Positions 17,194-51,496 are shown, numbered from the stretch's first letter. The stretch: DNA of 64,000 nt from Alphaproteobacteria bacterium (GCA_028282385.1 JANQIB010000098.1:4502-68501); one strand, 5' to 3'. Notes: generated by a model not told the origin, from the letters alone. Numbers and translations are program-made.

Positions 17194-17195
17194 TC

Positions 17196-17822: not shown

Positions 17823-17838
17823 ATTGGTTTCAAATTTA

Positions 17839-18734: not shown

Positions 18735-18764
18735 TGCTTATCTCCTTTTATGTTAGCTGTGGTT

Positions 18765-20536: not shown

Positions 20537-20566
20537 TTATACCTAATTATTACTTATTCTACATTT

Positions 20567-21204: not shown

Positions 21205-21252
21205 TTCATATCTTTGATAAAAAAGACAGCCTAAAAATCAGCGGTACACTTT

Positions 21253-21453: not shown

Positions 21454-21465
21454 ATTCTGAAACCC

Positions 21466-23475: not shown

Positions 23476-23480
23476 GAAAA

Positions 23481-24116: not shown

Positions 24117-24146
24117 TATTTTCTCCTTTGATTGAAATATTAAAAT

Positions 24147-25944: not shown

Positions 25945-25948
25945 ATTT

Positions 25949-26224: not shown

Positions 26225-26235
26225 TTTTTTTCTCC

Positions 26236-27136: not shown

Positions 27137-27143
27137 TTTTTAG

Positions 27144-27174
27144 CAAAAGCAGGATTTATGTTCTGCTTTTGTTC
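27144..27174. promoter_or_regulatory. candidate operator: GTTC-N7-GTTC (alphaproteobacterial SOS-box form) overlapping a 9-bp inverted repeat
   Basis: GTTC at 27160-27163, tgctttt, then GTTC at 27171-27174. The inverted repeat is CAAAAGCAG (27144-27152) and CTGCTTTTG (27163-27171). The site lies 24-38 nt upstream of the first cluster gene and about 85 nt upstream of the divergent repressor. Confidence 0.5.
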
Positions 27175-27258
27175 TATTTATGGGGCAACTTCACGCCCAT
27201 GTCAAGGAATTTTTTCCTAATGCTGTAAGAGACGTAGGATGATATACCTACAGACATT

Positions 27259-27906
27259 ATGCTAACACACGAAAATATCTGGACTGCAATTGACCGTTTA
27301 GCGGCAAGCTTTGGGTATTCTGCCTCCGGTCTTGCAAAACAGGCAGGACTTGACCCCACCTCTTTTAACAAAAGTAAACGAATAAGCCCTGAAGGCAAAC
27401 CCAGATGGCCTTCTACAGAAAGTATATCGCGTATTCTAACTGCCACAGGCGCAACGATGAATGATTTCATAGCACTCATCGATTCTGACGCCAGTACTCA
27501 TTCAAATAAAGCGGAACAAACCCTTCCGCTTATTCATTTTACACAGACCAAACAAAAAGAAGTTTTTGATAAAAACGGAAACCCAACCGGAGATTTATGG
27601 GACCATGTACAATTCCCGGATATGGAGATGAATAAGACTAATATTTTTGCCATTGAAGTAAGTGGTAATTCACTGATGCCGCTATACCGGAACGGAGATA
27701 TTCTGATCGTTTCTCCAAACGCCCCTATCCGTCGCGGTGACCGTATTGTGATAAGAAACGCAAAAGGAGTTCTCTCTGTTCAGGAGGTGCTTAAAAAGCA
27801 AGCCCGGAAACTTGATCTAAAATCTGTTTGCGCAAAGAAAAAAACCATATCATACACATCAAAAGATATTGACTGGACCGCACGCATTCTCTGGGTTAGT
27901 CAATAA
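27259..27906 (+). CDS. HTH plus S24 (LexA/CI-like) peptidase-domain repressor
   Basis: 215 aa. The N-terminus is IWTAIDRLAASFGYSASGLAKQAGLDPTSFNKSKR (HTH). The C-terminus is IFAIEVSGNSLMPLYRNGDILIVSP...GDRIVIR....VQEVLKK (S24 Ser/Lys pattern). Confidence 0.8.
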   Translation: MLTHENIWTAIDRLAASFGYSASGLAKQAGLDPTSFNKSKRISPEGKPRWPSTESISRILTATGATMNDFIALIDSDASTHSNKAEQTLPLIHFTQTKQKEVFDKNGNPTGDLWDHVQFPDMEMNKTNIFAIEVSGNSLMPLYRNGDILIVSPNAPIRRGDRIVIRNAKGVLSVQEVLKKQARKLDLKSVCAKKKTISYTSKDIDWTARILWVSQ

Positions 27907-27925
27907 TGCGAACAGAGAAAGAAAA

Positions 27926-28591
27926 ATGACATCAAAAGAGATAGCAAAACAGTCTGCAAAAATTTTACTTGATACAAAATCGGTCTTATTCAATGCAGAT
28001 GAACCCTTCACCTATACTTCAGGTGCAATAGGTCCTGTTTATGTTGATTGCCGCCGGCTTATTTCCTTTCCCAAAGAAAGAGATGCGCTGATGAGCTTTG
28101 CTGAAAGCCTGCTTAAAGATCTGCCTATCGACTTTGTTGCGGGCGGGGAAACTGCCGGTATTCCTTATGCTGCTTTCTTAGCAGAACGGATGAATAAAGC
28201 TATGCTTTATATTCGTAAAAAACCTAAGGGGTTTGGCCGCATGGCACAGATTGAAGGTTACTTCGAAGAAGGATCAAATCCCAATGTGCTTCTGGTTGAA
28301 GATCTTCAGCGTGATGGTGGCAGTAAGGTTCCTTTTGTTGAGGCTTTACGAGACGCGGGAGCGAACGTAGAACATTCTTTTGTTGTTTTTCATTATGGAA
28401 CGTTCCCCAAAAGTGAGGAACGCATGAAAGAGTTGGGCCTCAATCTTCACACTTTAGCAACCTGGTGGGATGTTCTGGATATTGCAAAAGAAGAAGATTA
28501 CTTCGACACTAAAACAATTGAATCGGTTGAATTCTTTTTAAAAGAACCTGATGCATGGGCCGCTCAAAACGCAGACAAAGCTCATGGTTAA
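27926..28591 (+). CDS. pyrE: orotate phosphoribosyltransferase
   Basis: The PRPP motif is VLLVEDLQRDGGSK and GGETAGIPYAAFLA is present. The ORF opens earlier (27869), but MTSKEIAK at 27926 fits. Confidence 0.85.
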   Translation: MTSKEIAKQSAKILLDTKSVLFNADEPFTYTSGAIGPVYVDCRRLISFPKERDALMSFAESLLKDLPIDFVAGGETAGIPYAAFLAERMNKAMLYIRKKPKGFGRMAQIEGYFEEGSNPNVLLVEDLQRDGGSKVPFVEALRDAGANVEHSFVVFHYGTFPKSEERMKELGLNLHTLATWWDVLDIAKEEDYFDTKTIESVEFFLKEPDAWAAQNADKAHG

Positions 28592-29345
28592 AATTAGTTT
28601 TTTTGCATCAGGCACACCGGAAGCTCAGACTGCGCTTGAAGATCTAACGTCCCTATACAAAAACACACCCGTTGAAGAATCTGACATAATTGTTGTTATA
28701 GGGGGTGACGGGACGATGCTTGAAACCCTTCACAAAACAAACGCACACGGAAAACCTGTCTATGGTATGAATTGCGGCTCTGTTGGGTTTTTAATGAATC
28801 CCTATAGCCTTCAAAATTTACCCGAACGGCTTGATAAAGCAGGTAAGGTTACAATTTATCCGCTACGTATGAATGTTACAGACAAAAACGGTAAAAAACA
28901 CGAAGCGATTGCCTTTAATGAAGTTTCGTTACTGCGTGAAACGCGGCAGGCTGCAAAACTAAAAATCAGCGTTGATAATACAGTTCGTATCCCTGAGCTT
29001 ATTTGTGATGGGGCTCTTTTATCGACACCTGCAGGAAGCACCGCCTATAACCTTTCTGCACGCGGTCCGATCTTACCCTTAAGTGCAAATGTCCTTGCTT
29101 TAACTCCGATCAGTGCTTTCCGCCCGCGCCGCTGGCACGGCGCACTGTTGCCCCGTCATGTCACGGTGCGTTTTGATATTCTTGAAGATGAGAAAAGACC
29201 CGTCAGCGCCACCGCCGATTTCACCGAAATCCGCGACGTTAAAACAGTAGAGATCCGGCAATCCCGTAGTATTGCCAGCACGCTGCTTTTCAACCCCGAT
29301 CATCACCTTGAAGACCGGATTTTAAACGAACAATTTACGAACTAA
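28584..29345 (+). CDS. nadK: NAD kinase
   Basis: DIIVVIGGDGTML, NCGSVGFL and STPAGSTAYNLSARGPI are present. The ATG at 28584 overlaps the pyrE stop. Confidence 0.9.
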   Translation: MVKISFFASGTPEAQTALEDLTSLYKNTPVEESDIIVVIGGDGTMLETLHKTNAHGKPVYGMNCGSVGFLMNPYSLQNLPERLDKAGKVTIYPLRMNVTDKNGKKHEAIAFNEVSLLRETRQAAKLKISVDNTVRIPELICDGALLSTPAGSTAYNLSARGPILPLSANVLALTPISAFRPRRWHGALLPRHVTVRFDILEDEKRPVSATADFTEIRDVKTVEIRQSRSIASTLLFNPDHHLEDRILNEQFTN

Positions 29346-36125: not shown

Positions 36126-37175
<1,050 letters not shown>

Positions 37176-37291
37176 CTACGATTACAATATTATATGCCTA
37201 GATCTTCGCTGATCTATAGCAAAGAACAAAAACCTTCGCATTAAGAGATTTACGGTTCTCCACGCTTAATACAAATCCTGTCTGTATGCAG

Positions 37292-37319
37292 CAAAAAACC
37301 CGCCTCTAAAAGCGGGTTT
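37292..37319 (-). terminator. rho-independent terminator after rpmJ
   Basis: On the minus strand: aacccgc-ttttagag-gcgggtt followed by TTTTTT. Confidence 0.8.
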
Positions 37320-37346
37320 CCATTCAGACAAGCTAATAAAATTCCC

Positions 37347-37472
37347 TTAACCTTGGCGAGCCTTGAAACGCTTGTTGGTTTTATTAATCACATAAACGCG
37401 GCCACGGCGACGTATGACGCGGCAATTACGGTCACGTTTTTTCAATGTCTTCAAAGAGTTAGAAACCTTCAT
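37347..37472 (-). CDS. rpmJ: 50S ribosomal protein L36
   Basis: Too short for the ORF track. Hand translation gives [41 protein letters not shown]. Confidence 0.9.
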
Positions 37473-37555
37473 CGGGGTCTTCCTTACTTAAAAATTCAAA
37501 TTCCGGGCGGAAAATACACGCCCAAAGGGTAATTTGTCAAGCTTTCCGGAGCTAT

Positions 37556-37981
37556 TTAGCTAAGAACTACCCCGCCACTATAGATAACAACTATAATGAC
37601 ATAAGCAAGATGCGTTAAATTATGAGCTTCCTGATCTGCTCCCATCGCCCACCAAAAGTAGGTATCTTTAGGCATCCAGCCCATTTTACGGGTCAACACT
37701 CCCTTTGTTCTGTCAATGAAGCTGTGAAGAATAAAATCAGCCAAACCCAGCCAAATCAGCCCTGGAGCAAAGACAAGCATAATAAGGCAAGTTGCAATCG
37801 CATGGATTGCTGTATGAGTAAATAAAGCTTTATAACCTTCTTTACCCGGGGCGCTTTTGCTTAAAGCCATCCATTCTGTTTGTAGAATAAAATCACAAAT
37901 CAGCTGTTTAAGCCGGAAAGCAAGGTATAAAAAAATGATCGAAACAGGGGTCATAGCTATACTGAGTATGGCGTTATTCAC
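37556..37981 (-). CDS. DUF3307-like membrane protein
   Basis: 141 aa with 4 hydrophobic segments. The motifs are LICDFILQTEWMALSK and HSFIDRTKG. Confidence 0.5.
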   Translation of the reverse strand: MNNAILSIAMTPVSIIFLYLAFRLKQLICDFILQTEWMALSKSAPGKEGYKALFTHTAIHAIATCLIMLVFAPGLIWLGLADFILHSFIDRTKGVLTRKMGWMPKDTYFWWAMGADQEAHNLTHLAYVIIVVIYSGGVVLS

Positions 37982-38108
37982 TCAATATTCCAAGAAAATT
38001 TCCAAGGACTGATCTAGAGAGGTTGTTGATTTTCAATCGAAACAGCCTCACAATTAACTTTCTGATAAATGTTCTTTGCTATGTCTTAATATCTAAAGTC
38101 AAAATTCT

Positions 38109-39347
38109 ATGGGAGCTATGGAAACAGTACAAACATATAAAAGCTATAAGTCTGGCGACATTATTATGACGCAAGGCGAGCAAGGTGATTGTGCTTACCT
38201 GATCGAAGAGGGCCAGGTTGAAATTTTAATTGAAAAAAGTGATGGTTCAATCGAACGTCTTGCCACACGCGGACCAGGCACTGTGATCGGCGAAATGGCA
38301 ATTGTTGACGACGCACCAAGGGTTGCCACAGTCCAGGCCGTCGAAGATTGTAAACTTCTTGAGATTTCCAGGGAAGACTTTAACCGCAGGCTGGATAGCG
38401 CTGATCCGGTCATTAAGATGATTGCACAAATCATTCTGACGAGATACCGGGACATGCTTGTCAGAGCTTCTATTTTTAATGATCCTGATAGCGTTCCCAC
38501 ACCGGAAGATCTTGAACGGAAAGTTGTTCAACAAAATAATGCCGGTGAAATGATTAAAATGGCCAATGACTTTAAAATCGCCATTGAAAGCAATCAGCTC
38601 CAACTTCACTACCAGCCAATTATAGACTTTGAGACAACTGAACTAAAGGGATTTGAGGCCTTAATGCGGTGGAAACACCCCGAACAAGGCATGATCCCCC
38701 CCGGTGTCTTTATCCCCGTTGCCGAAGATAGCGGATTAATTGTACAGGCCAGCCGGTGGGCATTGCGTGAAGCTTGTCAGGCCCTGAACCGTATTCAGGG
38801 ACAAACAGGCTATGATTTTGATTTAACGATGAGCGTAAATTTCTCAAGCACTGATTTTGCCGATGAAAATTTTCTTGAGCAGGTTTATCTGATTTTAAGT
38901 GAAACAGATATTGAACCAAATCGTATCAACCTTGAAATCACAGAACGATTACTCATGACACAACCTGATAATGCAAAAGAAACCCTATCAATGTGCCGGC
39001 AAGCAGGTTTGGGGATTTCAATTGATGATTTCGGCACAGGATATTCATCTCTCAGCTATCTTCATTATTACCCGATTGACACATTGAAAGTTGATCAAAC
39101 ATTTGTCCGAAATATGCGCGCCGATGACAGTGCCCGTGAGCTGGTAAAATCAATCATCGCCCTGGGCAAAAACATGCAAATGAAGACAATTGCCGAAGGC
39201 GTTGAAGATCTGGAAGATGCTCAAATCCTGAAGGAAATGGGCTGCGATCAATCACAGGGTTATTATTTTTCAAGACCTCTGCCTGAACATGAAATCGTCG
39301 ATTTTGTCAGAGACTGGGACATCAACCCCCTTAAAAGCTCCTTTTAA
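38109..39347 (+). CDS. cyclic-nucleotide-binding domain plus EAL domain protein (predicted c-di-GMP phosphodiesterase)
   Basis: The CAP_ED-like part is GDCAYLIEEGQVEI...GEMAIVDDAPRVATV. The EAL set is GFEALMRW, NFS, LEITER, DDFGTGYSSLSYL, KVDQTFV, EGVED and QGYYFSRP. Confidence 0.85.
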   Translation: MGAMETVQTYKSYKSGDIIMTQGEQGDCAYLIEEGQVEILIEKSDGSIERLATRGPGTVIGEMAIVDDAPRVATVQAVEDCKLLEISREDFNRRLDSADPVIKMIAQIILTRYRDMLVRASIFNDPDSVPTPEDLERKVVQQNNAGEMIKMANDFKIAIESNQLQLHYQPIIDFETTELKGFEALMRWKHPEQGMIPPGVFIPVAEDSGLIVQASRWALREACQALNRIQGQTGYDFDLTMSVNFSSTDFADENFLEQVYLILSETDIEPNRINLEITERLLMTQPDNAKETLSMCRQAGLGISIDDFGTGYSSLSYLHYYPIDTLKVDQTFVRNMRADDSARELVKSIIALGKNMQMKTIAEGVEDLEDAQILKEMGCDQSQGYYFSRPLPEHEIVDFVRDWDINPLKSSF

Positions 39348-39471
39348 CTAAAATTTTAGACGTTTTTTAAGCCCCTTTAAGCTTTGCTCTCTATAATTGA
39401 TAAGATAGGGAGAGTTATTGAATAGGCTAAATTTAACCTATTGATTGTAAACAATAATAAGGGTTTGGAAT

Positions 39472-42400
39472 ATGGCGCGCATTGTGGATGGACTGGGTTC
39501 TGGAAGCTCATCAGGAAATACAAATCATGAAATTATTGCGGTTGACGGTGCGGAAATAATTTCCGTACCCGGCAGCGAATTCACTGGCGATGCACAGATG
39601 ACCCGTGAAGGTCACGATCTTATTCTTGAAGCTCCAAATGGCAAAATTATTGTAATCGAAGGATATTTTTTAGCCGAGCCTGCTCCTGTTATCCAGGCTG
39701 CAGATGGAAGCGCTTTAACGCCTCAACTTATAGAGTCTTTCACGAAATCTCCCATGCAATTCGCGCAAACAGGCTCAATGGTCGATGAAAGCCCGGTCGG
39801 CGCAATCGAGGAAGTAAAAGGTGATGCCGTTATCATCCGCGCTGATGGAACACAAGAGCCTGCCACAATCGGAACGCCGGTGTATCAGGGCGATATTGTT
39901 GAAACGTCAAAAAGCGGCGCTGTAAATATTGTCTTTTTAGATGAAACAAGCATGGCCATCAGTGAAGATGCCCGCTTTGCCGTCAATGAATATACATTCG
40001 ATCCTGCGAGTGAAAGCGGTACGACAAACTTTTCCGTCCTGCGCGGCGTCTTTGTTTTCACAAGCGGTTTGATTGGACGGGATGATCCTGATGATGTCGA
40101 AATCGAAACACCTGTCGGATCAATCGGTATTCGTGGAACAATCATTGCTGGAAACATTAAACCCGGCGGTGAAACGGAAATTTCCGTTCTTGAAGGGGCT
40201 ATCGTTGTCCGGAACGGTTTTGGCGAAAAAACGCTCTCTACACAATTTGAAGCTATCAAGATTAGCGGCTTTGATCAGCCGATGTCAGACAGCTTTGTGA
40301 TGAGTGCAAATGATATCGGAAATAAATTCGGTGCGGTCAGAGATGTTGCGCCTACATTGTTCAGCGCCGTAAATGATAGTGCCAAAGAACCAGGCAATAA
40401 TACGCCACAGGAAAATAATAAGACAGATCCGGAAGCGCAAGGTGAACAAGAAGGTGAAGGCAAAGCCCCTGAATCCGGAGAATCTAAAAATCCGGCTGAT
40501 ATAAATATGCAGGACAATAAAGAAGCCGGTAATGTAAACCAGCCAGTAGATCCAGCTGCTCCTGAAGGAGAGGCTCCACCTGTCCCACCGCCTACAACAG
40601 ATCCAATTTTGCAAACTGGTTGGGAAACTCCAGAATTCGATAACTCAAAAACAAATGGTGACGGCCTACCCTCTCACTTACCAAGCAATGATGCTTTAGG
40701 AACAGGCTTTGAAGCCCGTCCGGCAGAACCCATTGATGTAAAGCCCCCCCAGAACACTGAAGGTGAAGAAACAAATACAGATGAGGTTCTTCCTCCACCA
40801 CCCGACACAACCAACAACAACACAGTTGACACAACCCTCTACATTAACGCACCGAATGCCGCGCGCGGCGTGAGTGTCATTATTGATGATATCGGCAACC
40901 ATATTGGTTTTGATCTCGCAGCGCTTGGTGATCTCAATAATGACGGTTTTGCCGATTTCATGTTTACAAATAATACGACAAATGCCGCACAAAATCACAG
41001 CTATGTCGTTTATGGAGCTGGAGCTGGAGGCCCTTCCGGCCTCGTTCCCAATCTGGTTGATAATACAATCGCAGCCTTGAATGATATCGACGCAGATCCA
41101 GGAGAAATCGGCGTATTAGGTAATAACACATCAAATGCTAATTTCTCTCACACGTTAGTGGCCGGGATTGGTGATTTCGATGGTGACGGGGTTGAAGACT
41201 ATGTGATTACTCAAAAAAATAATAACAGCGGCACAGCGGGAACGGGAGATGCGGCAATCGTCAGCGGAGCGTCTGGCAATTCTAGCACCTTCGTAGGCTT
41301 AACAGGTGGTGATCTCTTCGGCGCCTCCGTTGCTGGTGTTGGCGATATCAATAATGACGGTTATGACGATGTTCTGATCGGCGCGCCGGGCGCAGATGGT
41401 GCCTTTACGGATGGTGGGAAAGCCTATCTCGTCTATGGTGGGCAAAACCCGCTTGGAACAAATATTTCGGAAACATCTCTGATGAGCGCTACAGGCCTGA
41501 CCTTCGAAGGCGGTGCAAATAATGAGAATTTCGGCGCAGCTGTCACCGGGCTGGGTGATTTTGACGGCGACGGCGGAAGAGATTTTGCCATCGGCGCACC
41601 GGACGGAAACCGTGTCAATGTCCATCTGGATAGCGGCATTATCGATATTCACCACATGACAGCCGGATATAATTTCGGCAGCGAGCTTAGTGGCTTGGGT
41701 GATATAAATGGAGATGGCTTATCTGATATGGTCATTGCTAGCGCTACTGTTCAGAATGAAGCCTATTTTGTTTCCGGGGGAAGTACTTCTATTTCAGATA
41801 TTGACGCTGCAACAGCTAATGCCAATGTCTTTAAAATCAACACAGGACCGCACAATATCCTTGGCGCCGGCGCTATCGGGGACTGGAACGGGGATGGCTT
41901 TGATGATTTTGCACTGGCTGTTTCAAGTGGAGCCGATGCAAATGTGTATGTTCTCTACGGAAAGCAGAATATTTTTGCAAATGACACAATAGATCTGAGC
42001 TTCCTAAACAACCCGCAAAATGCTTTTAAAATGGTTTATCAGGGCGGGAATGCTCTTCATTTCACAATAGAAGGCCTGGGCGATATCGACAGCGACGGAT
42101 TTGATGATCTGGGTATCGGTATTGAAAATTTCAATGAACCAAACAGCACAGGTACTGTAAATGACGGAAAAGTTATTGTGGTTGAAGGGAGAGATGCAAC
42201 AGACTCTGTCCTTGAAGGCAGCAATACATCTGCAAATAACCTGACAGCAAATGCTAATAATCAGAGTATCGTCGGCGGCAAATTCAATGACTATGTTCAT
42301 GATGGTGGCAATTCTGGTCTAAGTGTAAAAGGAGCTGCAGGAGATGATGTTGTCGAAATCACAAATACAAATTTCCGTTCAATAGATGGTGGATTTGGCC

Positions 42401-42795
42401 ATGATACAATCCTGCTGGGCGCAAATGGTCTGGACTTTGGCAATATTGAATTTGAAAAAATCAGCTCTGTCGAAAAACTGGAAATGACACAGGCAGGGCA
42501 AACAGTTCGCCTAACCCTCGAAAATATCTTTAATCTTCTCGAAACAGCCGAAGGTCACGAACTTAAGATCGATGCAAACGGATTTGGCGGCACGACATTA
42601 GTTTTGGATATTGACGGTGACGGCACAGATGATGTTGCTGGAAATCCAAATACAGCAGCTGAATTAAGTACAGCCATAAACAGTGTCGGCCACGCCTCTT
42701 CGGTCAATGGCTCACCGCCAACAGGCTATGTCCAGTTTGATATAGGAAACAATACTCTATATATCGATGCAAACATCGCAGTTGACGCACAATAA
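39472..42795 (+). CDS. large type I secretion substrate: N-terminal module, FecR-like domain, acidic/Pro-rich linker, seven FG-GAP repeats, RTX-like C-terminal secretion region
   Basis: 1107 aa. The FecR-like part is VKGDAVIIRADGTQEPATIGTPVYQGDIVETSKSGAVNIVF...IGIRGT...VLEGAIVV. Seven GD(L/F/I/W)(N/D)xDGxxD(F/Y/V/M/L) motifs are present. GGFGHDTILLG and the ending NNTLYIDANIAVDAQ fit a T1SS C-terminal target. There is no N-terminal signal peptide. Confidence 0.75.
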   Translation: MARIVDGLGSGSSSGNTNHEIIAVDGAEIISVPGSEFTGDAQMTREGHDLILEAPNGKIIVIEGYFLAEPAPVIQAADGSALTPQLIESFTKSPMQFAQTGSMVDESPVGAIEEVKGDAVIIRADGTQEPATIGTPVYQGDIVETSKSGAVNIVFLDETSMAISEDARFAVNEYTFDPASESGTTNFSVLRGVFVFTSGLIGRDDPDDVEIETPVGSIGIRGTIIAGNIKPGGETEISVLEGAIVVRNGFGEKTLSTQFEAIKISGFDQPMSDSFVMSANDIGNKFGAVRDVAPTLFSAVNDSAKEPGNNTPQENNKTDPEAQGEQEGEGKAPESGESKNPADINMQDNKEAGNVNQPVDPAAPEGEAPPVPPPTTDPILQTGWETPEFDNSKTNGDGLPSHLPSNDALGTGFEARPAEPIDVKPPQNTEGEETNTDEVLPPPPDTTNNNTVDTTLYINAPNAARGVSVIIDDIGNHIGFDLAALGDLNNDGFADFMFTNNTTNAAQNHSYVVYGAGAGGPSGLVPNLVDNTIAALNDIDADPGEIGVLGNNTSNANFSHTLVAGIGDFDGDGVEDYVITQKNNNSGTAGTGDAAIVSGASGNSSTFVGLTGGDLFGASVAGVGDINNDGYDDVLIGAPGADGAFTDGGKAYLVYGGQNPLGTNISETSLMSATGLTFEGGANNENFGAAVTGLGDFDGDGGRDFAIGAPDGNRVNVHLDSGIIDIHHMTAGYNFGSELSGLGDINGDGLSDMVIASATVQNEAYFVSGGSTSISDIDAATANANVFKINTGPHNILGAGAIGDWNGDGFDDFALAVSSGADANVYVLYGKQNIFANDTIDLSFLNNPQNAFKMVYQGGNALHFTIEGLGDIDSDGFDDLGIGIENFNEPNSTGTVNDGKVIVVEGRDATDSVLEGSNTSANNLTANANNQSIVGGKFNDYVHDGGNSGLSVKGAAGDDVVEITNTNFRSIDGGFGHDTILLGANGLDFGNIEFEKISSVEKLEMTQAGQTVRLTLENIFNLLETAEGHELKIDANGFGGTTLVLDIDGDGTDDVAGNPNTAAELSTAINSVGHASSVNGSPPTGYVQFDIGNNTLYIDANIAVDAQ

Positions 42796-42800
42796 TTTAA

Positions 42801-45059
42801 CTACTTTGTTTTAGCTTCAAAAACCCCGTCCCAGTCATCAGGTGGCGGGGTTTTCAAATAATCTCCAATCCGTCCTGAAAACAGATCATAATAACCTTGC
42901 AGCATGTCACCAGCTAATTCACGTGCCTCTTTCAAATCCTGGGCAGCACAGTCAAAATCACCAGCCCGATAAGCTGCCAGCATGCCCTCATGCGCTGTTT
43001 TCCACTTTAAATAGGAAGGGTCTTTCGCATATATTTCATTGCCAAGCAGCGTATAAATTCTGGCCGGCTGTTCTTTTCCTTTAACCTTGATCAGATCCAG
43101 TTCCAGAAAAGCCAGATCTTTTGCAGCTTTAACTGTCTCTTCGCCAACTAGTACCTGAACACCATAAGCTTTCGTTTGCCCTTCCAAGCGGGAGGCCAAA
43201 TTTACAGCATCCCCAAGGGCCGAATAGGCAAAACGCTGACGGGATCCCATATTTCCAACACTACACGGGCCGGTATTAATTCCAATACCCGCGTTTAAAA
43301 GAACAGCATTTTGGCCTGTCTCTTGCGCTTTCTTTTTTATGGCCTCATTAATCGGCACCAAAGCCTCATTCATGCGCAGCGCACTTAGACAAGCATTGCG
43401 GGCATGATGAGAATCCTCAAGTGGTGCATTCCAAAACGCCATCATGGCATCACCCATATATTTATCAATCGTTCCCCTGTTTTCCATGACCAAGTCAGAC
43501 ATAGGCGTTAGAAAATCATTCATCAGCTGAATAAGCTCTTCAGGACTTAAACTTTCTGAAATCGTTGTAAAACTCCTTATATCGGTAAACATCACCGTTA
43601 AATCACGAACTTCACCACCCAGTTTCAATTTGTCCGGGTTATTTTCCAGTTCTTCCATAAAGTCAGGAGAAATATAAAGCCCGAAAGCCTCCCGCACCTG
43701 TTTTCGCTCAGATTCAATTCTAAGATAACTCAACAAGGACGAAACCAGAAAAAGAGCAGAAAGAGAAATGCTGGGATAAACAGGATCAAGCAATAATCCC
43801 ATTTGAGTATAAAAATTCCAGGACCCGAAAAACATCCCTCCCATCATCAGAAGGGCAAAGAAACCAAGCCAGATCACACTGACAAACGGGGCCAGTAAAA
43901 TAATCAATAAACCTGCGCCGGCGATAATCAACGCCTCGACACCGACAATCAAATCCGGGCGTTGTAAAAATTTACCTTGTAAGATTTGTTCAACAACATT
44001 GACGTGAACCTCAACCCCCGGAACAAAAATGTCCAGAGGTGTTGACCGTATATCCCGTAAACCTTCTGCGCTCGTCCCAACAAAAACAATCTTGTCTTGG
44101 ATTTTATCCCGCACCTCTTTTCTTGCACTTTCATCATAAAGCTTCCAGGCTGGGATATATTCATCGTCAGAAATATGGCGATAATACACCCAGAGTTTTG
44201 AATTTCTTTCGACAGGGATTTCATACTCGGATAAAGAAATAAGATAATCCGTATCGAAAATTTTCTTATTTTTTCTCTGCTTAACCAGAAAACGCGCCTT
44301 TGGATCCACATGAACACGCAGCGCTTCAATTCCTAACATCGGATAAAGAGTCGAATTATATTCTTCAGTATTCTCCGGCGGAAACTTAACAAGAAGTGAG
44401 ACTTCACGAATAAGACCGTCAATATCGGGCGTTGCCATAAAGCTTCCATTTCCAGCTGCAGCTTGTGAAAACTCAGGAAGATTAGTTGCCACCCCAGGTG
44501 CTGCAAAAGAATATTCTTCAAAAGGTGTTTTATCCTTAAGCAAAAAAGTTGGCTTAACGTTTTGATATGGCGCCCTTAAAGTTTCTCCCGGTTTTGCGCG
44601 GGTAAATCCTGTGACAACATTACCAGCGTCCCTGATAGACTCTGCAAAAAGCTGATCGTGTGCAGGAAGCGCCAAAAGACTATTTTTTATTTCTTCAAAA
44701 TTATTAACTTCACGAAAGTGATGAACAACGCTTTCAGGAGATGTTCTGTCCTTTTCTGCAAAGACAACATCAAATGCAATAGAGCTGGCGCCCATTTCTG
44801 CCAATTCGTCTACCATTTGGGCCATAACATTTCTGGGCCATGGAAACTGACCCATTTTTTTTAACGATTCCTCATCAATATCTATGATAACGATCTGATC
44901 ACTCTTTTCTCTGGGATAGAGCTGATTGAATGTATCAAATGTTACATATTGAAGACGCTTTCTTAGCTCAGAATCAGAACCACTAAAAACAACGCAGGCA
45001 ACCAAAAGTACGAGTAATATAAGAAAATGGAACCAGCGATTTACCAGAATATTAGTCAT
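42801..45059 (-). CDS. CHASE2 sensor domain plus class III adenylate/guanylate cyclase
   Basis: 752 aa. An N-terminal TM and periplasmic CHASE2-like region (IVIIDIDEESL..FPWPR) are followed by 3 TM helices, then LTVMFTDIRSFTTISE, GDAMMAFWNAP, IGINTGPCSVGNMGS and YSALGDAVNLASRLEG. Confidence 0.85.
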   Translation of the reverse strand: MTNILVNRWFHFLILLVLLVACVVFSGSDSELRKRLQYVTFDTFNQLYPREKSDQIVIIDIDEESLKKMGQFPWPRNVMAQMVDELAEMGASSIAFDVVFAEKDRTSPESVVHHFREVNNFEEIKNSLLALPAHDQLFAESIRDAGNVVTGFTRAKPGETLRAPYQNVKPTFLLKDKTPFEEYSFAAPGVATNLPEFSQAAAGNGSFMATPDIDGLIREVSLLVKFPPENTEEYNSTLYPMLGIEALRVHVDPKARFLVKQRKNKKIFDTDYLISLSEYEIPVERNSKLWVYYRHISDDEYIPAWKLYDESARKEVRDKIQDKIVFVGTSAEGLRDIRSTPLDIFVPGVEVHVNVVEQILQGKFLQRPDLIVGVEALIIAGAGLLIILLAPFVSVIWLGFFALLMMGGMFFGSWNFYTQMGLLLDPVYPSISLSALFLVSSLLSYLRIESERKQVREAFGLYISPDFMEELENNPDKLKLGGEVRDLTVMFTDIRSFTTISESLSPEELIQLMNDFLTPMSDLVMENRGTIDKYMGDAMMAFWNAPLEDSHHARNACLSALRMNEALVPINEAIKKKAQETGQNAVLLNAGIGINTGPCSVGNMGSRQRFAYSALGDAVNLASRLEGQTKAYGVQVLVGEETVKAAKDLAFLELDLIKVKGKEQPARIYTLLGNEIYAKDPSYLKWKTAHEGMLAAYRAGDFDCAAQDLKEARELAGDMLQGYYDLFSGRIGDYLKTPPPDDWDGVFEAKTK

Positions 45060-45065
45060 GAGATA

Positions 45066-46382
45066 TTAGCGCTCCGTAAAAGCCCTGTCACGCGCGCGTA
45101 AAATCGGTTTAAGCAAATATTCTAAAATTGTCCGTTTACCCGTTATAACTTCCGTTTCGGCAACCATGCCCGGTGTTATCGGCATTTTATTTTTCTCATT
45201 GCCCATATAATTCTTATCGCTACGCACTTCTATTTCAAAAAAGATATTCCCTTCCCGATCTGTCACGCTATTTGCCCCGATGCGCGTAAGTTTGCCCTCC
45301 AAAGACCCATAACGCTGCGGATCGTAAGCTGTAATTTTAACTTTTACATCTTGGCCAGTCCGCAAAAAACCAATTTCATGGGGCGCAACCTTTGCCATTA
45401 TTTTTAACTCATCATCCAAAGGAACAATTTCAACAAGCCTCATTGCCGGCTCAACAACCCCACCCTTCGTTTTGAGCATGATTTTATTGACAACACCGCG
45501 AACCGGACTACGTAATTCTGTTCTGAAAACACGGTCTCCAATCGCTGTGAGGCTTTCTTCAAGCTGGCTGATCTGTGTTTCAACCTCATTCAATTCTCCC
45601 AGCGCCTGAGATTTAAACTTTGTTTCTCTGTCTTCACGTTCTTTTTTGGCGCCGCGCAGTTCTGCTTCTAAAGCACCTCTTCTTTGAACAGCTTCACTGA
45701 TTTGCCCGGATACATCATTCACTTCCCGGCGCAATCGTATTTCTTCCAGCTCAGGAACGGCACGCTTTCTCACCATCTCGGCAGTTATCTTAAGCTCTTT
45801 TTGCAAGGAAGAACGATTGCTGGACAATCTTGAGATTTTGGCTCTTACCTCAGCCAATTCAGATTGAGCACGGCTGATATTATTATCCAAAATAGACATC
45901 GCGTTTTTAAGTTCCTGCTGCCGTGATCTATATAAATTTTCTTCGTTCCGCGCAATCTCAGGCGCATTTTCTTTTATGTTTTCCGGCAATACGAAGTCGG
46001 ATCCATTTGCTTCCGCTTCCAGCCTGACGCGCTTGGCTTTTAAAGCATAGCTACGCGCTTCTGTTCCACGCTCTTCAGAGGCAAACGCAACGTCACTGAT
46101 CCGCATTAGAATCTGATCTTTTTCGACAATCTCGCCTTCCTGAACATTGAGCTCTGCAAGAATCCCCCCCTCTAAACTTTGAACAATCTGGATCTCACTT
46201 GTCGGCACAACCTGCCCCATGCCGCGCGTAATTTGCTCAACTTTGGAAAACCCTGCCCAGACAAAAAAGAAAACAACAAGCGCCAGAACGGAAAACAACA
46301 TCAGAAGAGACGCCAGCGAAGGTTTCAGGTTCGCCGCTGCCTCCAATTCATTCATAAAATCTGTGTCTTTTCTGTTTTGCAT
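45066..46382 (-). CDS. HlyD-family type I secretion membrane fusion protein
   Basis: 438 aa with an N-terminal TM, a long coiled coil and a C-terminal beta-barrel, ending ITGKRTILEYLLKPI. Confidence 0.85.
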   Translation of the reverse strand: MQNRKDTDFMNELEAAANLKPSLASLLMLFSVLALVVFFFVWAGFSKVEQITRGMGQVVPTSEIQIVQSLEGGILAELNVQEGEIVEKDQILMRISDVAFASEERGTEARSYALKAKRVRLEAEANGSDFVLPENIKENAPEIARNEENLYRSRQQELKNAMSILDNNISRAQSELAEVRAKISRLSSNRSSLQKELKITAEMVRKRAVPELEEIRLRREVNDVSGQISEAVQRRGALEAELRGAKKEREDRETKFKSQALGELNEVETQISQLEESLTAIGDRVFRTELRSPVRGVVNKIMLKTKGGVVEPAMRLVEIVPLDDELKIMAKVAPHEIGFLRTGQDVKVKITAYDPQRYGSLEGKLTRIGANSVTDREGNIFFEIEVRSDKNYMGNEKNKMPITPGMVAETEVITGKRTILEYLLKPILRARDRAFTER

Positions 46383-48520
46383 TACGTGTCTTTTGGAACT
46401 TCAATCCCTTGCTTGCTTAGCGCTTTTAAAACCTCATCGCGTTTCCCGTCTAAAACCACTCTTCCCTGATCCATTAAAATCAGGCGCTCAACTAGCGGTA
46501 AAAGCTGAAAACGATGTGTAATAAGGATAAGTGTTTTGCCCTTAGTTTGGTCAAAAAGATGTTTTGTAAAAGCCGTTTCAGCCTGTACATCCATCGCATT
46601 TGTCGGTTCATCACAAATATAGATTGAGGGATCCAGCAGCATTGCCCGCGCGAGCGCGATAGATTGCCGCTGCCCGCCGCTTAAACCTTCGCCGCGCTCA
46701 CCCACCGGAGCATCATACCCCATAGGATGCTGGGAAATAAAATCATGAACGCCAGATAGTCTTGATACTCGTAATACATCCTCTTCACTGGCATGTGGCA
46801 TACTGGCGGTAATATTGTCACGGACCGTCCCGCTAAATAAAACAACATCCTGGGAGATATAGCCTGTATTGCGCCTTAGATCGGCCGGGTCAATTTGTTT
46901 ATAATCCGTTTCATCATATAAAACGGTTCCCTCTTCAGGCTCATAAAGCCCAACCATCAACCTGGCAAGTGTACTTTTCCCTGAGCCAATCCTGCCGATT
47001 ACACCGATTTTTTCTCCCGGACCAATAGAAAAGCTGACATGATCTAAAACTTTGCGGCCTGCATTTGGATAAGAAAAAGACACATTTTTAAACGCGATCT
47101 GTCCCTTTAGGTCAGGACGATGAAGAAACTGTATTTCCGCCGGGCGCTCAACAGGCTGTGCCATAATTCCGTTTAATGTTTTTAAAGCAGACTTTGCACC
47201 ATGATACCGACTCATCAAGTTTGCCACCTGGCCGATTGGGGCTATGGCCCGACTTCCAAGCATAACGCAAGCAATGAGTCCGCCCATGGTCAGATTTTGA
47301 TCTTTAACAAGATACATGCCTGTTAAAACAACCAGGATTGAGGCAATTTGCTGTAGAAAAGTTGCCGCATTCACACCCAACGCAGATATAAAACGTGATT
47401 TCTGTCCATAAGCCGCGTTCTCACCAATATATTGCCCATAGCGAGCACGGAGCTTTCCTTCCGCTCCAATTGCTTTTAAAGTTTCTAAACCGGAGATTGT
47501 TTCAACCAACAAACCGTGTTTTGCTTCGGAAGATTTTGTTGCTTTACGAACAACGGATTTTAAAGGGGCTTGAAGCATGACGCCGATCGCAAAAACAATT
47601 ACAATCAAACAAAATAGAAGCAATGCAATGGATCCGCCAATGAGCCAAATGATAAACAAAAAGAAAAGAGCAAATGGAAGATCGACAATCGCCGTTAATG
47701 TTGCCGAAGTATAAAAATCCCTGACCGTATCGAACTCCCGCAGCATGTTTGCAAAAGCGCCACTTGAAGCCGGACGAAAAGCCAACCTCATATTTAAAAG
47801 TTGATCATAAATCCGCCGCGCCGCAATCACATCTGCCTTGCGACCGGCAAGGTCGATAAAATATCCACGCAGTGTGCGCATTAAAAAATCAAAAGAAAAT
47901 ACCGTTAAAGCACCAACTCCTAAAACCCAACCGGTTTCCAGCGCATTGTTGGGAATAACGCGGTCATACACATTCATAATAAAAATCGGGCTGGTCAAAG
48001 CAAACAGATTGATGAGCACAGAGGCTATCGCCACATTCCTATAAAGTGGTTTTGATTGCAAAACAGGACCCCAGAACCAATGCTGACCGGCCTCTTGATT
48101 CTCTTCATTTGTTTTTCCTGAGAAATCAGCGCGTGGATGAACCAATATACAATAACCGTCATATCGACTCTGCAGATCAGTTAAGGATAAAGAGCTTTTC
48201 TGCTGCCCTTCCGGAGACCAGATAATTGCTTCACCCTCGCTTTGCTCCAGAAGAACACAGGCTTCATTTCCCTTTAAAATTAAAACAGCCGGCAAAACTG
48301 CATTCTGAAGTTTTTTTATATTCTCACGATGGGTTATCTTGCTTTTAAGACCTATTTTATCAGCCGCTTCACAAAATAGGTTTGGTCCCATATTTTTTTC
48401 ATCATACGGCAAACCTGCTGTTAATGATGGCGCAGAACGAGCCTTCCCGTAATGACCCGTAAGGAAGACAAGGCATTCTAGTAATGGGTCTCCTTGATGC
48501 TTGTCTGTTGAATCGTTCAT
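46382..48520 (-). CDS. type I secretion ABC transporter (permease/ATPase) with an N-terminal C39-like domain
   Basis: 712 aa. Walker A is GRIGSGKST, the signature is LSGGQRQ and Walker B is IYICDEPT. The N-terminal ~130 aa are C39-like. The start and stop overlap the neighbouring genes. Confidence 0.85.
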   Translation of the reverse strand: MNDSTDKHQGDPLLECLVFLTGHYGKARSAPSLTAGLPYDEKNMGPNLFCEAADKIGLKSKITHRENIKKLQNAVLPAVLILKGNEACVLLEQSEGEAIIWSPEGQQKSSLSLTDLQSRYDGYCILVHPRADFSGKTNEENQEAGQHWFWGPVLQSKPLYRNVAIASVLINLFALTSPIFIMNVYDRVIPNNALETGWVLGVGALTVFSFDFLMRTLRGYFIDLAGRKADVIAARRIYDQLLNMRLAFRPASSGAFANMLREFDTVRDFYTSATLTAIVDLPFALFFLFIIWLIGGSIALLLFCLIVIVFAIGVMLQAPLKSVVRKATKSSEAKHGLLVETISGLETLKAIGAEGKLRARYGQYIGENAAYGQKSRFISALGVNAATFLQQIASILVVLTGMYLVKDQNLTMGGLIACVMLGSRAIAPIGQVANLMSRYHGAKSALKTLNGIMAQPVERPAEIQFLHRPDLKGQIAFKNVSFSYPNAGRKVLDHVSFSIGPGEKIGVIGRIGSGKSTLARLMVGLYEPEEGTVLYDETDYKQIDPADLRRNTGYISQDVVLFSGTVRDNITASMPHASEEDVLRVSRLSGVHDFISQHPMGYDAPVGERGEGLSGGQRQSIALARAMLLDPSIYICDEPTNAMDVQAETAFTKHLFDQTKGKTLILITHRFQLLPLVERLILMDQGRVVLDGKRDEVLKALSKQGIEVPKDT

Positions 48521-50103
48521 TATTCTCCCAGATCAGGATAAACCCGCTCATCACTAATCGGATCGAGTTTCTCTTCTTTTATTTCGATATCAGGCACAGG
48601 CTCCGGTGTCTGATTAACCTCATCTGGATCAACTTCAGAAGGACTGTCTACTGCCTTCGGAGTTGGGGCAACGAGCCCTTTGAAAACGCCTTCCCGAATA
48701 ACTTTATCGTCAATCTGTTTAGGAGGGAAAGGTTCTGATTCAACTTCTTCATAGATCTGTTTTTCTTCCATTGTAGACACAATCTCTGCAGGCACATCAG
48801 ATACCAGCGCTTGTTGCAAACGCCCGGCGCTTGCCAGCGCTGCATATTCCGTCAGGAACAAGGTGTATTCTGCGTTTAAATTTGCAAGACGAGCCCCAAA
48901 AAGCTGGTTGTCCGCCTGCATTAATTGCAAAAGCCTGATACGCGCACCTTCAAACTGTGCCTCATAAGACTCAAATAAGTTTTTTGTAATTTTTTCACGT
49001 TTTTCAGAAATCGCTTTTTGTTTCCTGGCTGTATTCAAAGCCTGATAGGATAAGGCAATATCACGTTCAACCTGACGCAATGTCTCCTGATGTTTGGCCA
49101 GCTTTTCCGAATGCTGTGCTTTCACTTTGCGAACACGCGCAAAATCACCGCCGCCCGTTGCAAAATCCCAACTCAGACGAAGTAAAGCACGCGCATCCTC
49201 AAGTTCTCCACCAATCTCTTCTTTTTGATCACGCTGCTGGTAAGAAAGTTCACCATCCAGATCAGGGAGTATAACACCCTGCTCTGCATCAACATCATAG
49301 CCTGCGGCTTCAATTTCTTTTAGGCTGGAAAGAATGGAGGGATGATTTGTTTTTGCAAAATCATTTGCCTCATCAGCCGTTGGAAATAAAAGCGGGCTGC
49401 TTGCTTTTGGTTTTTCAAGCCGGCTTTCCGGCATCCGGCCAACAATCTCTTTATAAGTGGCGAGCGCTGCTTCGGCCTGCCCCTGGGTCTGCGCCAGTGT
49501 TTCATCCAAAAGCAAATTAATGTTCCGAGCCTGGGCAGCCTCAACTTCATCGGCAGCACCTTCATCAACAAGAAGTTCAATACGGTCTAAATAATCTGAT
49601 AATTTGGATTTGTATGCTTTTACCTTTTCAACCGTTTCCTGAGCTTGCAGAACGCCAATATAAGCCTGCACAGCTTTTAAGGCGATATTCTCCCGGGCAT
49701 CAGCGACACTTAAATTCGCCGCCTCCATCCGCGCATTAGCCGCGTCAACGCGGTTAAATGTTTCCATGCCATCAAAGATTGGCTGCGTTAAAGATGCATT
49801 TCCTTCCCAAAGCCAGGAATAAGCTTCACCGCGATCTGTCGTTAACCCCCGGCTTGTACTGTTATCGGCAAACATACGGCCGCCGGTGATAGACGTACTC
49901 AGCGCAGGAAAAAAATCTGAACGTGCTTCCGCCCTGCCTTCCATCGCCGTTATCTCGGCAGCACGGGCCGCCTCGATTGTCGGATGATTATGAATTGCCA
50001 TCTGGACAGCCTCATGTAAGGTCTCTGCCTGCGCAGAAACAGATATTGCTGTCAGGCATAAAGACAGACCACCCAGAAAGAGTTTATTTCGGACATTAAA
50101 CAT
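48520..50103 (-). CDS. TolC-family outer membrane channel
   Basis: 527 aa with a signal peptide and two TolC repeats (LHEAVQMAIHNHPTIEAARA...), plus an acidic C-terminal extension. Confidence 0.8.
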   Translation of the reverse strand: MFNVRNKLFLGGLSLCLTAISVSAQAETLHEAVQMAIHNHPTIEAARAAEITAMEGRAEARSDFFPALSTSITGGRMFADNSTSRGLTTDRGEAYSWLWEGNASLTQPIFDGMETFNRVDAANARMEAANLSVADARENIALKAVQAYIGVLQAQETVEKVKAYKSKLSDYLDRIELLVDEGAADEVEAAQARNINLLLDETLAQTQGQAEAALATYKEIVGRMPESRLEKPKASSPLLFPTADEANDFAKTNHPSILSSLKEIEAAGYDVDAEQGVILPDLDGELSYQQRDQKEEIGGELEDARALLRLSWDFATGGGDFARVRKVKAQHSEKLAKHQETLRQVERDIALSYQALNTARKQKAISEKREKITKNLFESYEAQFEGARIRLLQLMQADNQLFGARLANLNAEYTLFLTEYAALASAGRLQQALVSDVPAEIVSTMEEKQIYEEVESEPFPPKQIDDKVIREGVFKGLVAPTPKAVDSPSEVDPDEVNQTPEPVPDIEIKEEKLDPISDERVYPDLGE

Positions 50104-50302
50104 AAGATGTTTGCCGCCAGGATAAGATTAAAAACGGAAGCATACTCGACCCCTTTGAATTTAAAGCTTTATCTGGTTCTATGCAAGAAGCCTGCCGCTT
50201 AAATAGCGGAATATTATAGATAACTATGATCCACACTCTTCACAAACTCTTGAATTTCAGGCAGTGTCTGCTAACTCATTAAGAAACAAAAAATATATAG
50301 GA

Positions 50303-51496
50303 ATGACGATTGTGGGTTTTACCATATCTATCTTAAAAGAAACCGCCCCTTACGAAGAGCGTGTTGCCGCAACGCCGGAAACGGTTAAAAAATTCGTTGC
50401 GATGGGTGCCAAAGCGCTTGTGGAAAAGGGAGCAGGCATAAAAGCCTCTATACCTGATGATGAATATGAAAAAGCAGGCGCGGAAATTTCTGAAACCGTC
50501 AAAGACACCGCCGATATTATTCTCTGTGTCCAGGCAAATACCGATACTTTAGAAGGAATGAAAACAGGATCTATTCTCATTGGACAGCTCGCACCGTATA
50601 ACAATGAGGATTTAATCAAAACCGCAGCGGATAAAAATATAACTGCTTTTTCTATGGAACTTGTGCCGCGCATTACCCGCGCTCAGGCAATGGATGTTCT
50701 GTCTTCTCAATCTAATCTGGCTGGGTATAAAGCTGTTCTTGATGCAGCTGAACACTATGGCAAGTCCTTTCCGATGATGATGACGGCTGCGGGAACAGTT
50801 CCACCAGCGAAAGTCTTTGTGATGGGCGCAGGCGTTGCCGGTCTGCAGGCTATCGCAACAGCCAAGCGCCTTGGCGCAATTGTTTCTGCAACCGATGTCC
50901 GCCCTGCCGCGAAAGAACAGGTTCAATCTTTAGGCGCAAGCTTTGTTGCTGTTGAAGATGATGAGTTTAAAGAAGCTGAAACAGCAGGTGGCTATGCCAA
51001 AGAAATGTCTGATGACTATAAGAAAAAGCAGGCTGCTCTCATTGAAGAAACGATCGCTAAACAGGATATTGTAATTACGACTGCTCTGATCCCCGGACGC
51101 CCGGCACCTAAACTGGTGACCGAAGCCATGGTCAAATCGATGAAACCGGGATCTGTCATTGTTGATCTTGCTGCGCCTACAGGCGGTAACTGTGAACTGA
51201 CAAAAGCAGATGAAATTGTTGAACAGCATGCCGTAACCATTATAGGTCATAGCAATACGGCTAGCCGCCTTGCAGCGTCCGCTTCTGCTCTGTACGCCAA
51301 AAATCTGCTGAACTTAATTGGGCTTATTATCGATACAGATTCCAAAGACATTAAAATTGACTGGGATGATGATATTATTAAAGGCATTGCCTTAACCAGA
51401 GATGGGAAAATTATTCATCCTGGTTTTGGCGGGCCAAAAGAAGCGCCAGAGAAAAAGCCCGAAGAGAAAAAAGACAATGATAAGGATGCAGCCTGA
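50303..51496 (+). CDS. pntA: NAD(P) transhydrogenase subunit alpha part 1
   Basis: [42 protein letters not shown] and [11 protein letters not shown] are present. The ORF opens at 50264 and I prefer MTIVGF at 50303. Confidence 0.9.

Follow-up and report, generated by a model that had tools for sequence, protein, structure and literature searches.

The 64,000-nucleotide stretch of DNA analyzed here (hereinafter, the window) comes from a genome assembly labeled Alphaproteobacteria bacterium (GCA_028282385.1, JANQIB010000098.1:4502-68501) and contains, at positions 38,109 to 50,103, a block of six genes. These genes encode a cyclic nucleotide (cNMP)-binding EAL phosphodiesterase, a 1107-amino acid (aa) adhesin, a membrane cyclase with a CHASE2 domain, and the three components of a type I secretion system (T1SS). 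The adhesin is predicted to be a retained T1SS adhesin of the LapA/MpIBP type, the head of which has a FecR-like domain in addition. We propose that this head signals to the CHASE2 domain of the cyclase, so that the adhesin would be an input of the second-messenger pathway and not only its output; for this model as a whole, we consider the chances to be even. The adhesin is placed on the input side of the cyclase because genes for FecR-like and CHASE2 proteins are paired in genomes and because an anchoring domain precedes the FecR-like domain in this protein.

The AlphaFold2 model of residues 1-310 of the adhesin, obtained with 40 aligned sequences (mean predicted local distance difference test score, pLDDT, of 85.9), consists of two beta domains. 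The first of these (residues 19-90, pLDDT >90) is matched in a Foldseek search of the PDB by 5ix9, the ‘cell surface anchoring domain' of the Marinomonas ice-binding adhesin MpIBP, with a target-normalized TM-score of 0.77, a root mean square deviation of 0.9 A and 29% identity. The same structure served as the template for the retention module of LapA, which stops type I secretion such that LapA is left threaded through the TolC-like pore (bioRxiv 10.1101/198937). In profile searches, the N-terminus of the adhesin is weakly matched by NF033677 (BapA prefix), and NF033682 (LapA retention module) scores 32 bits, below the cut-off of 50. The second domain (residues 110-265) is recognized as FecR (PF04773; 43.3 bits against a cut-off of 24) and, in Foldseek searches, matches the C-terminal cell-surface signaling domain of PupR (6ovk_R, E 2e-5) as well as an anti-sigma protein of Parabacteroides (4m0n, E 2.5e-4). 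This is the best conserved portion of the adhesin family, with a mean identity of 67% in the FecR region compared with 42% in the propeller and 22% in the linker. In the full-length model, residues 287-452 are disordered (pLDDT <50), and this linker of ~165 residues is, as modeled, long enough to thread the TolC channel. The linker leads into a beta-propeller (~460-905, pLDDT 80-94) with DxDxDG-type loops, in which seven invariant G-D-x-(D/N)-x-D-G motifs correspond to seven blades. The beta-rich C-terminal region contains a single GGxGxD motif (residue 973) along with some degenerate repeats; family members share the C-terminal domain, which also has a homologous counterpart at the C-terminus of a 2846-aa paralog (L098).

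The FecR domain scoring above the cut-off and the fold match link the adhesin to the FecR/PupR regulators (PDB 6OVK). The likeness ends there: neither a hydrophobic segment nor an anti-sigma domain was detected in the 1107-aa protein (by sequence inspection, Pfam and NCBIfam), and without the anti-sigma domain and the transmembrane (TM) helix, the protein falls outside this regulator family, having the domain alone in common with it. The locus also lacks a TonB-dependent transducer. In anti-sigma systems, FecR domains are contacted directly by an outer-membrane protein, which thereby passes on its signal; in the window, by contrast, the domain is part of a secreted adhesin, with the CHASE2 sensor as its likely partner.

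The genes for the outer-membrane channel, the ATP-binding cassette (ABC) transporter and the adaptor, judging from their sequences, encode a T1SS of the LapB/LssB type. The transporter scores 897.6 bits with TIGR03375 (cut-off 693.1) and has a weakly matched Peptidase_C39 domain (28.7 bits) that, by eye, has lost the catalytic Cys and His; Pfam finds no cNMP-binding domain in either the HlyD protein or the transporter. The junctions of tolC with the ABC gene and of the ABC gene with hlyD are both TAATG overlaps, and the ATG of the cyclase gene follows the hlyD stop codon after 6 nt, in agreement with the overlaps and spacing given in a preliminary description of this block made from the sequence. 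The CHASE2 cyclase is thus the terminal gene of the secretion operon. The adhesin gene is convergent with it, with 5 nt between the two stop codons.

The cyclase has high-scoring CHASE2 (PF05226, 183.5 bits, E 7e-54) and Guanylate_cyc (PF00211, 84.6 bits, E 8.5e-24) domains. Its topology includes a TM segment at residues 10-28, a periplasmic CHASE2 region (19-386), a TM bundle (~371-450) and the cyclase domain (485-671). The metal-binding aspartates (D493 and D537) and the transition-state residues (N620 and R624) are all present, and the specificity pair K533/S613 is the Lys/Ser(Thr) pair of class IIIb adenylate cyclases. S613 aligns with a Thr in the adenylate cyclase CyaB of P. aeruginosa (3r5g), and the K533 position is occupied by Glu in the PDB chain 2w01_A, which is labeled as an adenylate cyclase in the PDB and which, despite this label, we take to be a guanylate cyclase. 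Based on these residues, the CHASE2 enzyme is predicted to be a class IIIb adenylate cyclase that produces cAMP.

The EAL protein combines a cNMP_binding domain (residues 11-95, E 8.5e-24) with an EAL domain (153-390, E 3.4e-74). The catalytic set of the latter is complete (Q169, E183-A-L, N244, E276/E279, D306-D307, K327, E362/E365 and Q383), as already noticed in the preliminary description, and the former contains an R-x-A-T phosphate-binding cassette that presumably resembles that of protein kinase A. The best match among the solved structures is Bd1971 of Bdellovibrio bacteriovorus, a protein of the same length and two-domain architecture, residues 9-388 of which (6hq5_A) align with residues 16-392 of the window protein (E 3.3e-70 in a phmmer search against the PDB; also 6HQ4). 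Bd1971 is an EAL phosphodiesterase in which the binding of cAMP to the N-terminal domain keeps the enzyme in its active conformation (Cadby et al. 2019, PMC6717892; PDB 6HQ2-6HQ7), and its loss results in a higher cellular level of cyclic di-GMP (c-di-GMP) (PMC6717892). Among the cAMP contacts of Bd1971 (E58/M59, R67/S68, R108 and N113; PMC12750041), four of the six are kept in the window protein, namely, the Glu-Met pair (E62, M63), the phosphate-binding Arg (R71) and the base-capping Arg (R112). These comparisons make for a well-founded prediction that the EAL protein is a Bd1971-type, cAMP-activated c-di-GMP phosphodiesterase. The cNMP-gated EAL step as such is already known biology from Bd1971, and a protein of Micavibrio aeruginosavorus is included among the full-length Bd1971 homologs listed in that study, which does not mention an operon, secretion or CHASE2 (PMC6717892). 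The gene in the window differs in its fixed position beside the genes for a T1SS adhesin and a CHASE2 cyclase; that study does not discuss such a setting. In a homology search with the EAL protein, only Micavibrio-type orthologs, with at least 60% identity, are found among the 120 matches listed.

The repertoire of cyclic nucleotide genes encoded in this genome (an assembly of 1.77 Mb in 159 contigs, 90.6% complete, with the window on contig C67) is small. The CHASE2 cyclase is the only PF00211 gene, and there are two cNMP-binding genes in total, one for the EAL protein, 3.5 kb from the cyclase gene, and the other for a 181-aa protein on contig C78. Six GGDEF genes and two EAL genes were detected. 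Given the sole PF00211 cyclase, the few cNMP receptors and the two EAL genes, the connection from cyclase to EAL protein is, provisionally, close to one-to-one in this genome. The 181-aa protein (C78:11440-11985; L103:5440-5985) is a stand-alone cNMP-binding protein and a second possible cAMP receptor; Pfam detects only cNMP_binding in it, with no effector or DNA-binding domain, and neither of the two cNMP_binding genes in the genome encodes a CRP-type regulator with a helix-turn-helix (HTH) domain.

The connection between the adhesin head and CHASE2 can be gleaned from a broader genomic comparison, for which we used a sample of 301 alphaproteobacterial genomes, roughly one or two per family. 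Profile matches to the head (anchoring plus FecR-like domains) are present in 102 of these genomes, many of them full-length heads on open reading frames (ORFs) of 1000-6900 aa. When the flanks of 20 head genes were inspected, T1SS ABC or HlyD genes adjoined the head gene in 7 cases, and a CHASE2 cyclase gene was present in 4. In genome G188, the order is TolC, a 1856-aa head adhesin, ABC and HlyD, followed by a CHASE2-Sel1-cyclase that starts 4 nt past hlyD; in G185, TolC, ABC, HlyD and a CHASE2 cyclase are convergent with a 3417-aa head/FG-GAP adhesin, which is the arrangement of the window; in G043, the head protein gene is divergent from that of a CHASE2 cyclase; and in G008, a CHASE2 cyclase cluster is located no more than 10 kb from the genes for TolC, a head protein, ABC and HlyD. 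Thus, the trio of a T1SS, a FecR-headed adhesin and a CHASE2 cyclase recurs in several independent lineages. The functional linkage of the genes suggested in the preliminary description is strengthened by this recurrence, with the difference that we would now place the adhesin on the input side.

The same signal is seen from the side of CHASE2, which is present in 129 of the 301 genomes. We crossed the listed CHASE2 matches with the listed matches to the head or FecR, so that all the counts are lower bounds. A FecR-like ORF is located within 10 kb of at least 43 of the 149 listed CHASE2 genes and within 500 bp of at least 22; the neighbor pairs occur in at least 37 of 100 genomes, and at least 26 of the partner ORFs are 800 aa or longer. 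By a rough estimate, ~1% per gene is expected by chance. Two cases are known from the literature: a LysM-FecR protein adjoins a CHASE2 histidine kinase in a Burkholderia biofilm operon (PMC5192318), and SMc02177, which contains a FecR domain, is part of the CHASE2-cyclase/Clr cascade of S. meliloti (PMC5498481).

In the mechanism that we propose, the LapB/LssB-type T1SS would export the adhesin until the N-terminal anchor stops the export. The adhesin would then remain threaded through TolC by the ~165-residue linker, with the propeller outside and both the anchor and the FecR-like domain in the periplasm. There, the FecR-like head would contact the periplasmic CHASE2 domain, and the presence, load or loss of the adhesin, for example, upon contact with prey or a surface, would set the activity of the cyclase. 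The cAMP produced would switch on the EAL enzyme so that c-di-GMP falls, and c-di-GMP receptors encoded elsewhere would execute the response, with the MshEN-LapG-like protease on contig C91 (see below) as a candidate. The model makes no prediction about the sign of the CHASE2 response. A bolder version holds that the adhesin is a sensor in its own right: the FecR-like head would be the CHASE2 ligand, contacts made by the propeller would be passed mechanically to cAMP synthesis and c-di-GMP hydrolysis, and FecR-like proteins would, in general, be the cognate inputs of CHASE2 domains. This version is tentative, and we are inclined to doubt it.

Several observations weigh against the adhesin-to-CHASE2 model or some of its parts. 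The link between the head and CHASE2 is inferred from gene neighborhood, and the FecR partners may be outputs or dispensable because, in S. meliloti, smc02177 is induced by cAMP/Clr and yet is not required for the CHASE2 cyclases to perceive the plant signal (PMC5498481). Many head adhesins have no CHASE2 nearby (the class B paralogs described below and those in G253, G222 and G098), and in the Micavibrio-type locus L077, the EAL and adhesin genes are not followed by the operon downstream. A mirror-tree analysis of 20 loci yields, for the FecR head, partial correlations of 0.47 with the cyclase domain, 0.37 with EAL, 0.23 with CHASE2 and ~0 with the T1SS parts, a weak signal from pairs that are not independent. 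The two remaining cAMP contacts of Bd1971 are altered in the EAL protein (S68 to V72, and N113 to Leu). The status of the CHASE2 enzyme as the only cyclase is provisional given the 90.6% completeness of the assembly and a search that covered the PF00211 class alone. Finally, the Pfam RTX profile (HemolysinCabind) has no match in the adhesin, the secretion signal of which is a presumed one.

The six genes and the domains within the adhesin are listed in the table below; the ORFs and the Pfam and NCBIfam matches agree with the gene content and positions given in the preliminary description.

Genes of the six-gene block and domains of the adhesin, with positions in the window
Feature	Positions	Strand	Basis
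cNMP_binding + EAL protein, 412 aa	38109-39347	+	Pfam
FecR + FG-GAP adhesin, 1107 aa (P0002)	39472-42795	+	Pfam, NCBIfam
Adhesin residues 19-90: predicted anchoring beta domain, MpIBP/LapA retention type (BapA prefix-like)	39526-39741	+	AlphaFold2, Foldseek 5ix9
Adhesin residues 110-265: FecR/PupR-like periplasmic signaling domain	39799-40266	+	Pfam FecR, Foldseek 6ovk_R
Adhesin residues 301-470: Pro/Asn/Glu-rich disordered linker	40372-40881	+	pLDDT, composition
Adhesin residues 471-900: seven-blade FG-GAP (integrin-alpha-like) beta-propeller	40882-42171	+	Pfam FG-GAP, FG-GAP_3
Adhesin residues 901-1107: degenerate RTX-like repeats and C-terminal domain, presumed secretion signal	42172-42792	+	Sequence
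CHASE2 + Guanylate_cyc cyclase, 752 aa, last gene of the T1SS operon	42801-45059	-	Pfam
HlyD family T1SS periplasmic adaptor	45066-46382	-	TIGR01843, 370 bits
T1SS ABC transporter, LssB/LapB subclass, N-terminal C39-like domain	46382-48520	-	TIGR03375, Peptidase_C39
TolC/OEP outer-membrane channel	48520-50103	-	PF02321, TIGR01844

The flanks of the block are housekeeping genes, PBP2-mreDCB with a DUF3307 gene on one side and pntAB on the other side. The block had been described as an island, and horizontal acquisition was considered; this is ruled out by the GC content of 0.42-0.48, which matches that of the neighborhood, together with the constant core-genome site, between mreBCD and pntAB, across the order. 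A scan of positions 37000-51000 for promoters and terminators gave no usable operon boundaries (27 promoter-like sequences against 24 in shuffled sequence, and 26 terminator-like sequences against 16).

Homologs of the 1107-aa protein are found in Micavibrio and in related metagenome-assembled genomes labeled ‘Rhodospirillales' or ‘Alphaproteobacteria'. In five loci (L014, L016, L017, L020 and L021), all six genes are present with the order and orientation seen in the window, the adhesins showing 43-47% identity to the window protein, and in the genome scan, all six genes appear in order in 29 of the 80 Micavibrio-type loci; across these 29 and the above five loci, the adhesin identity is 37-47%. 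About 12 further loci are ended by contig edges and agree with this arrangement as far as the sequence reaches. The cNMP-EAL gene adjoins the adhesin gene in all class A loci. As part of the model proposed above, and with the same even chances, we read the block as a self-contained unit of adhesion and second-messenger signaling in Micavibrio-like bacteria.

The head itself is modular. It occurs, at ~50% identity, on Micavibrio-type paralogs with other passenger regions, which are either an uncharacterized region of 800-950 aa or, in the larger forms, cadherin or LamG domains. These class B paralogs (loci L058-L101; for example, L068:9992-12505) are head proteins of 800-1000 aa, some larger, encoded at another conserved place in the chromosome, where they have no T1SS of their own and where four convergent genes, for proteins of ~490, 510, 130 and 700 aa, lie downstream. 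In G098, a 669-aa GGDEF(weak)-EAL protein (L153:8171-10180) is encoded directly upstream of a 1278-aa head protein; it may be a LapD-like receptor, and the gene order echoes that of the EAL and adhesin genes in the window. In G008, cNMP_binding is fused to a HlyD-type adaptor (contig C4, L155:5357-7087, minus strand); the neighbors of this fusion gene encode a C39-type ABC transporter, a CHASE2 cyclase and two small cNMP-binding proteins, and the cluster has the appearance of a secretion system under direct cyclic nucleotide control.

In the known LapA-type systems, the adhesin is connected to c-di-GMP through LapD and LapG. The absence of both from this locus, which had been reported previously, holds for the 64-kb window; elsewhere in the genome, there are two LapG-like (Peptidase_C93) genes, located on other contigs, neither of them beside an adhesin gene or a LapD-like gene. 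The two LapG-like proteins score 105 and 80 bits with NF045674, both below the cut-off of 320 bits. The N-terminal domain of LapD (PF16448) has no match in the genome, and the control genomes are equally silent, so that the absence of LapD is unproven; the genome encodes one further EAL protein, a GGDEF-EAL protein of 727 aa, and it falls under the cut-off of the LapD model. Residues 1-500 of the adhesin contain no (T/A/P/S)AA(G/V) motif, in line with the previous failure to see a (T/P)AAG cleavage site in this protein. Among the aligned family members, 4 of 25 have a dialanine motif in the first 500 residues, at differing positions, and such motifs are sporadic in the paralogs as well (4 of 27).

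In one of the LapG-like proteins (C91:9048-10007; L003:9048-10007; 319 aa), a LapG-like C93 domain with the Cys, His and Asp is combined with a single hydrophobic segment and a tandem pair of c-di-GMP-binding motifs of the MshEN type (NF053729; score 48.5 bits, cut-off 38); the gene for this protein adjoins those for a histidine kinase and two response regulators. Given the fusion of an MshEN module to the LapG-like protease, this genome is predicted to encode a c-di-GMP-responsive release protease, and the fusion could be a one-polypeptide stand-in for LapD plus LapG. Contig C58 carries, at ~16350-29340 (L102 covers 6001-26000), a second T1SS (TolC, an ABC transporter at 43% identity, and HlyD) without a cyclase, next to a 2473-aa cadherin/Big_9/DUF5801 adhesin. 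This adhesin contains TAAG (residue 242) and PAAG (residue 272) within an acidic segment after the N-terminal domain, which shows no match to a retention module in NCBIfam. Because of these two sites, it is likely to be a better candidate for a LapG substrate than the 1107-aa adhesin. In the unrelated genome G300 (contig C4, L147:6762-11064), a LapG-like gene, the product of which shows 41% identity to the C91 protein, is located between a T1SS (ABC and HlyD) and the gene for an 867-aa FecR-headed RTX protein; in the latter, PAAG (residue 376) comes directly after the head and is followed by poly-Gly. Given this LapG-like gene and the PAAG after the head, it appears that, in other lineages, the head may serve as a LapG-controlled retention module, the site being missing in the Micavibrio family.

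These findings bear on an alternative in which the adhesin is the output of the pathway: CHASE2 would sense an external small-molecule or envelope cue, cAMP would activate the EAL enzyme, and the fall of c-di-GMP would control the display or release of the adhesin via the MshEN-LapG protein or another route. The logic from cyclase to EAL is the same as in the model with the adhesin as input, and the MshEN-LapG fusion, the G300 locus and the position of the FecR-domain protein of S. meliloti as an output of cAMP (PMC5498481) all fit this scenario. However, no dialanine motif is conserved in the adhesin family or in the class B paralogs, the canonical-looking TAAG and PAAG are on the other adhesin with its second T1SS, and both the flanking of CHASE2 genes by FecR genes and the placement of the cyclase within the secretion operon are left unexplained. 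We consider this scenario unlikely, albeit one to be taken seriously. It corresponds to the relay envisaged in the preliminary description, from an external cue through a cyclic nucleotide and c-di-GMP to the surface display of the adhesin. The cyclase-cNMP-EAL half of that relay gains support from the Bd1971 homology, the Lys/Ser pair, the sole PF00211 gene and the presence of just two cNMP proteins; the control of adhesin display by c-di-GMP is left unsupported, with no cleavage motif in the adhesin.

It is also conceivable that cAMP gates the secretion machine or the expression of its substrate, with the EAL enzyme on a side branch. The G008 cluster would be a precedent, TIGR03896 (the bacteriocin-transport-associated cNMP family) is weakly matched by both cNMP proteins of the genome, and the stand-alone protein on contig C78 would be available as a receptor. 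Nevertheless, the HlyD and ABC proteins of the window lack a cNMP-binding domain, it is the cNMP-EAL gene and not one for a cNMP-transport protein that is kept beside the adhesin in all class A loci, and no CRP-type HTH regulator is among the two detected cNMP_binding genes, making this possibility improbable. Lastly, the block could be inherited synteny between mreBCD and pntAB without any functional coupling. Indeed, mreB, mreC, PBP2 and pntA are conserved in the same places and to the same extent as the cluster, and because these housekeeping flanks are equally conserved, synteny within the order does not by itself prove functional linkage. Such an explanation is at odds with the translational coupling that places the cyclase in the T1SS operon, the recurrence of the combination with different flanks in G188, G185, G043 and G008, the class-wide FecR-CHASE2 neighborhood signal, and the 3.5-kb distance between the sole cyclase and a cNMP receptor, and we regard it as highly improbable.

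The model with the adhesin as input combines features of several known systems. The locus resembles the Lap system of P. fluorescens (LapA, LapBCE, LapD and LapG) and that of MpIBP in the LssB/LapB-class transporter with a C39-like domain, the 5ix9-fold N-terminal anchor followed by a flexible segment, the large extracellular binding region, the presumed C-terminal secretion region and the link to c-di-GMP. It differs in having no dialanine site, LapD or LapG, in the extra FecR-like domain of the adhesin head, and in the presence of a CHASE2 adenylate cyclase in the secretion operon and a gene for a putatively cAMP-gated EAL enzyme beside that of the adhesin; furthermore, the LapG-like protease in this genome is fused to MshEN and not paired with LapD. 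In S. meliloti (CyaD1/CyaD2/CyaK-Clr-SMc02177/SMc02178), alphaproteobacterial CHASE2 cyclases likewise have functional ties to host contact and to an envelope protein with a FecR domain, but the cAMP receptor is the transcription factor Clr instead of an EAL enzyme, and the FecR protein is small, Sec-exported, a cAMP output and not needed for perception (PMC5498481). The ‘BiofilmReg' operon of Burkholderia contaminans (response regulator, LysM-FecR and CHASE2 histidine kinase) also combines a periplasmic FecR-domain protein with a biofilm-controlling CHASE2 sensor, but its output is a two-component kinase, with no T1SS or adhesin (PMC5192318).

Both cNMP-EAL enzymes and retained T1SS adhesins are already known. 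In the searchable literature, we found no description of a CHASE2 cyclase built into a T1SS operon, of a FecR-like domain within the retention head of an adhesin, or of the class-wide FecR-CHASE2 neighborhood. Common as the CHASE2 domain is, we know of no established cue that it senses, and the recurrent FecR-like neighbor provides a concrete, directly testable protein-protein hypothesis for its input. If the model is correct, attachment would be converted into a change of second messengers through a T1SS adhesin that never fully leaves its channel, Bd1971-type enzymes would gain a physiological source of cAMP, and Lap-like adhesin systems would extend past the LapD/LapG scheme. As an obligate predator, Micavibrio attaches to its prey and feeds in this state, and the six-gene block could then form part of the switch from attack to attachment in these bacteria.

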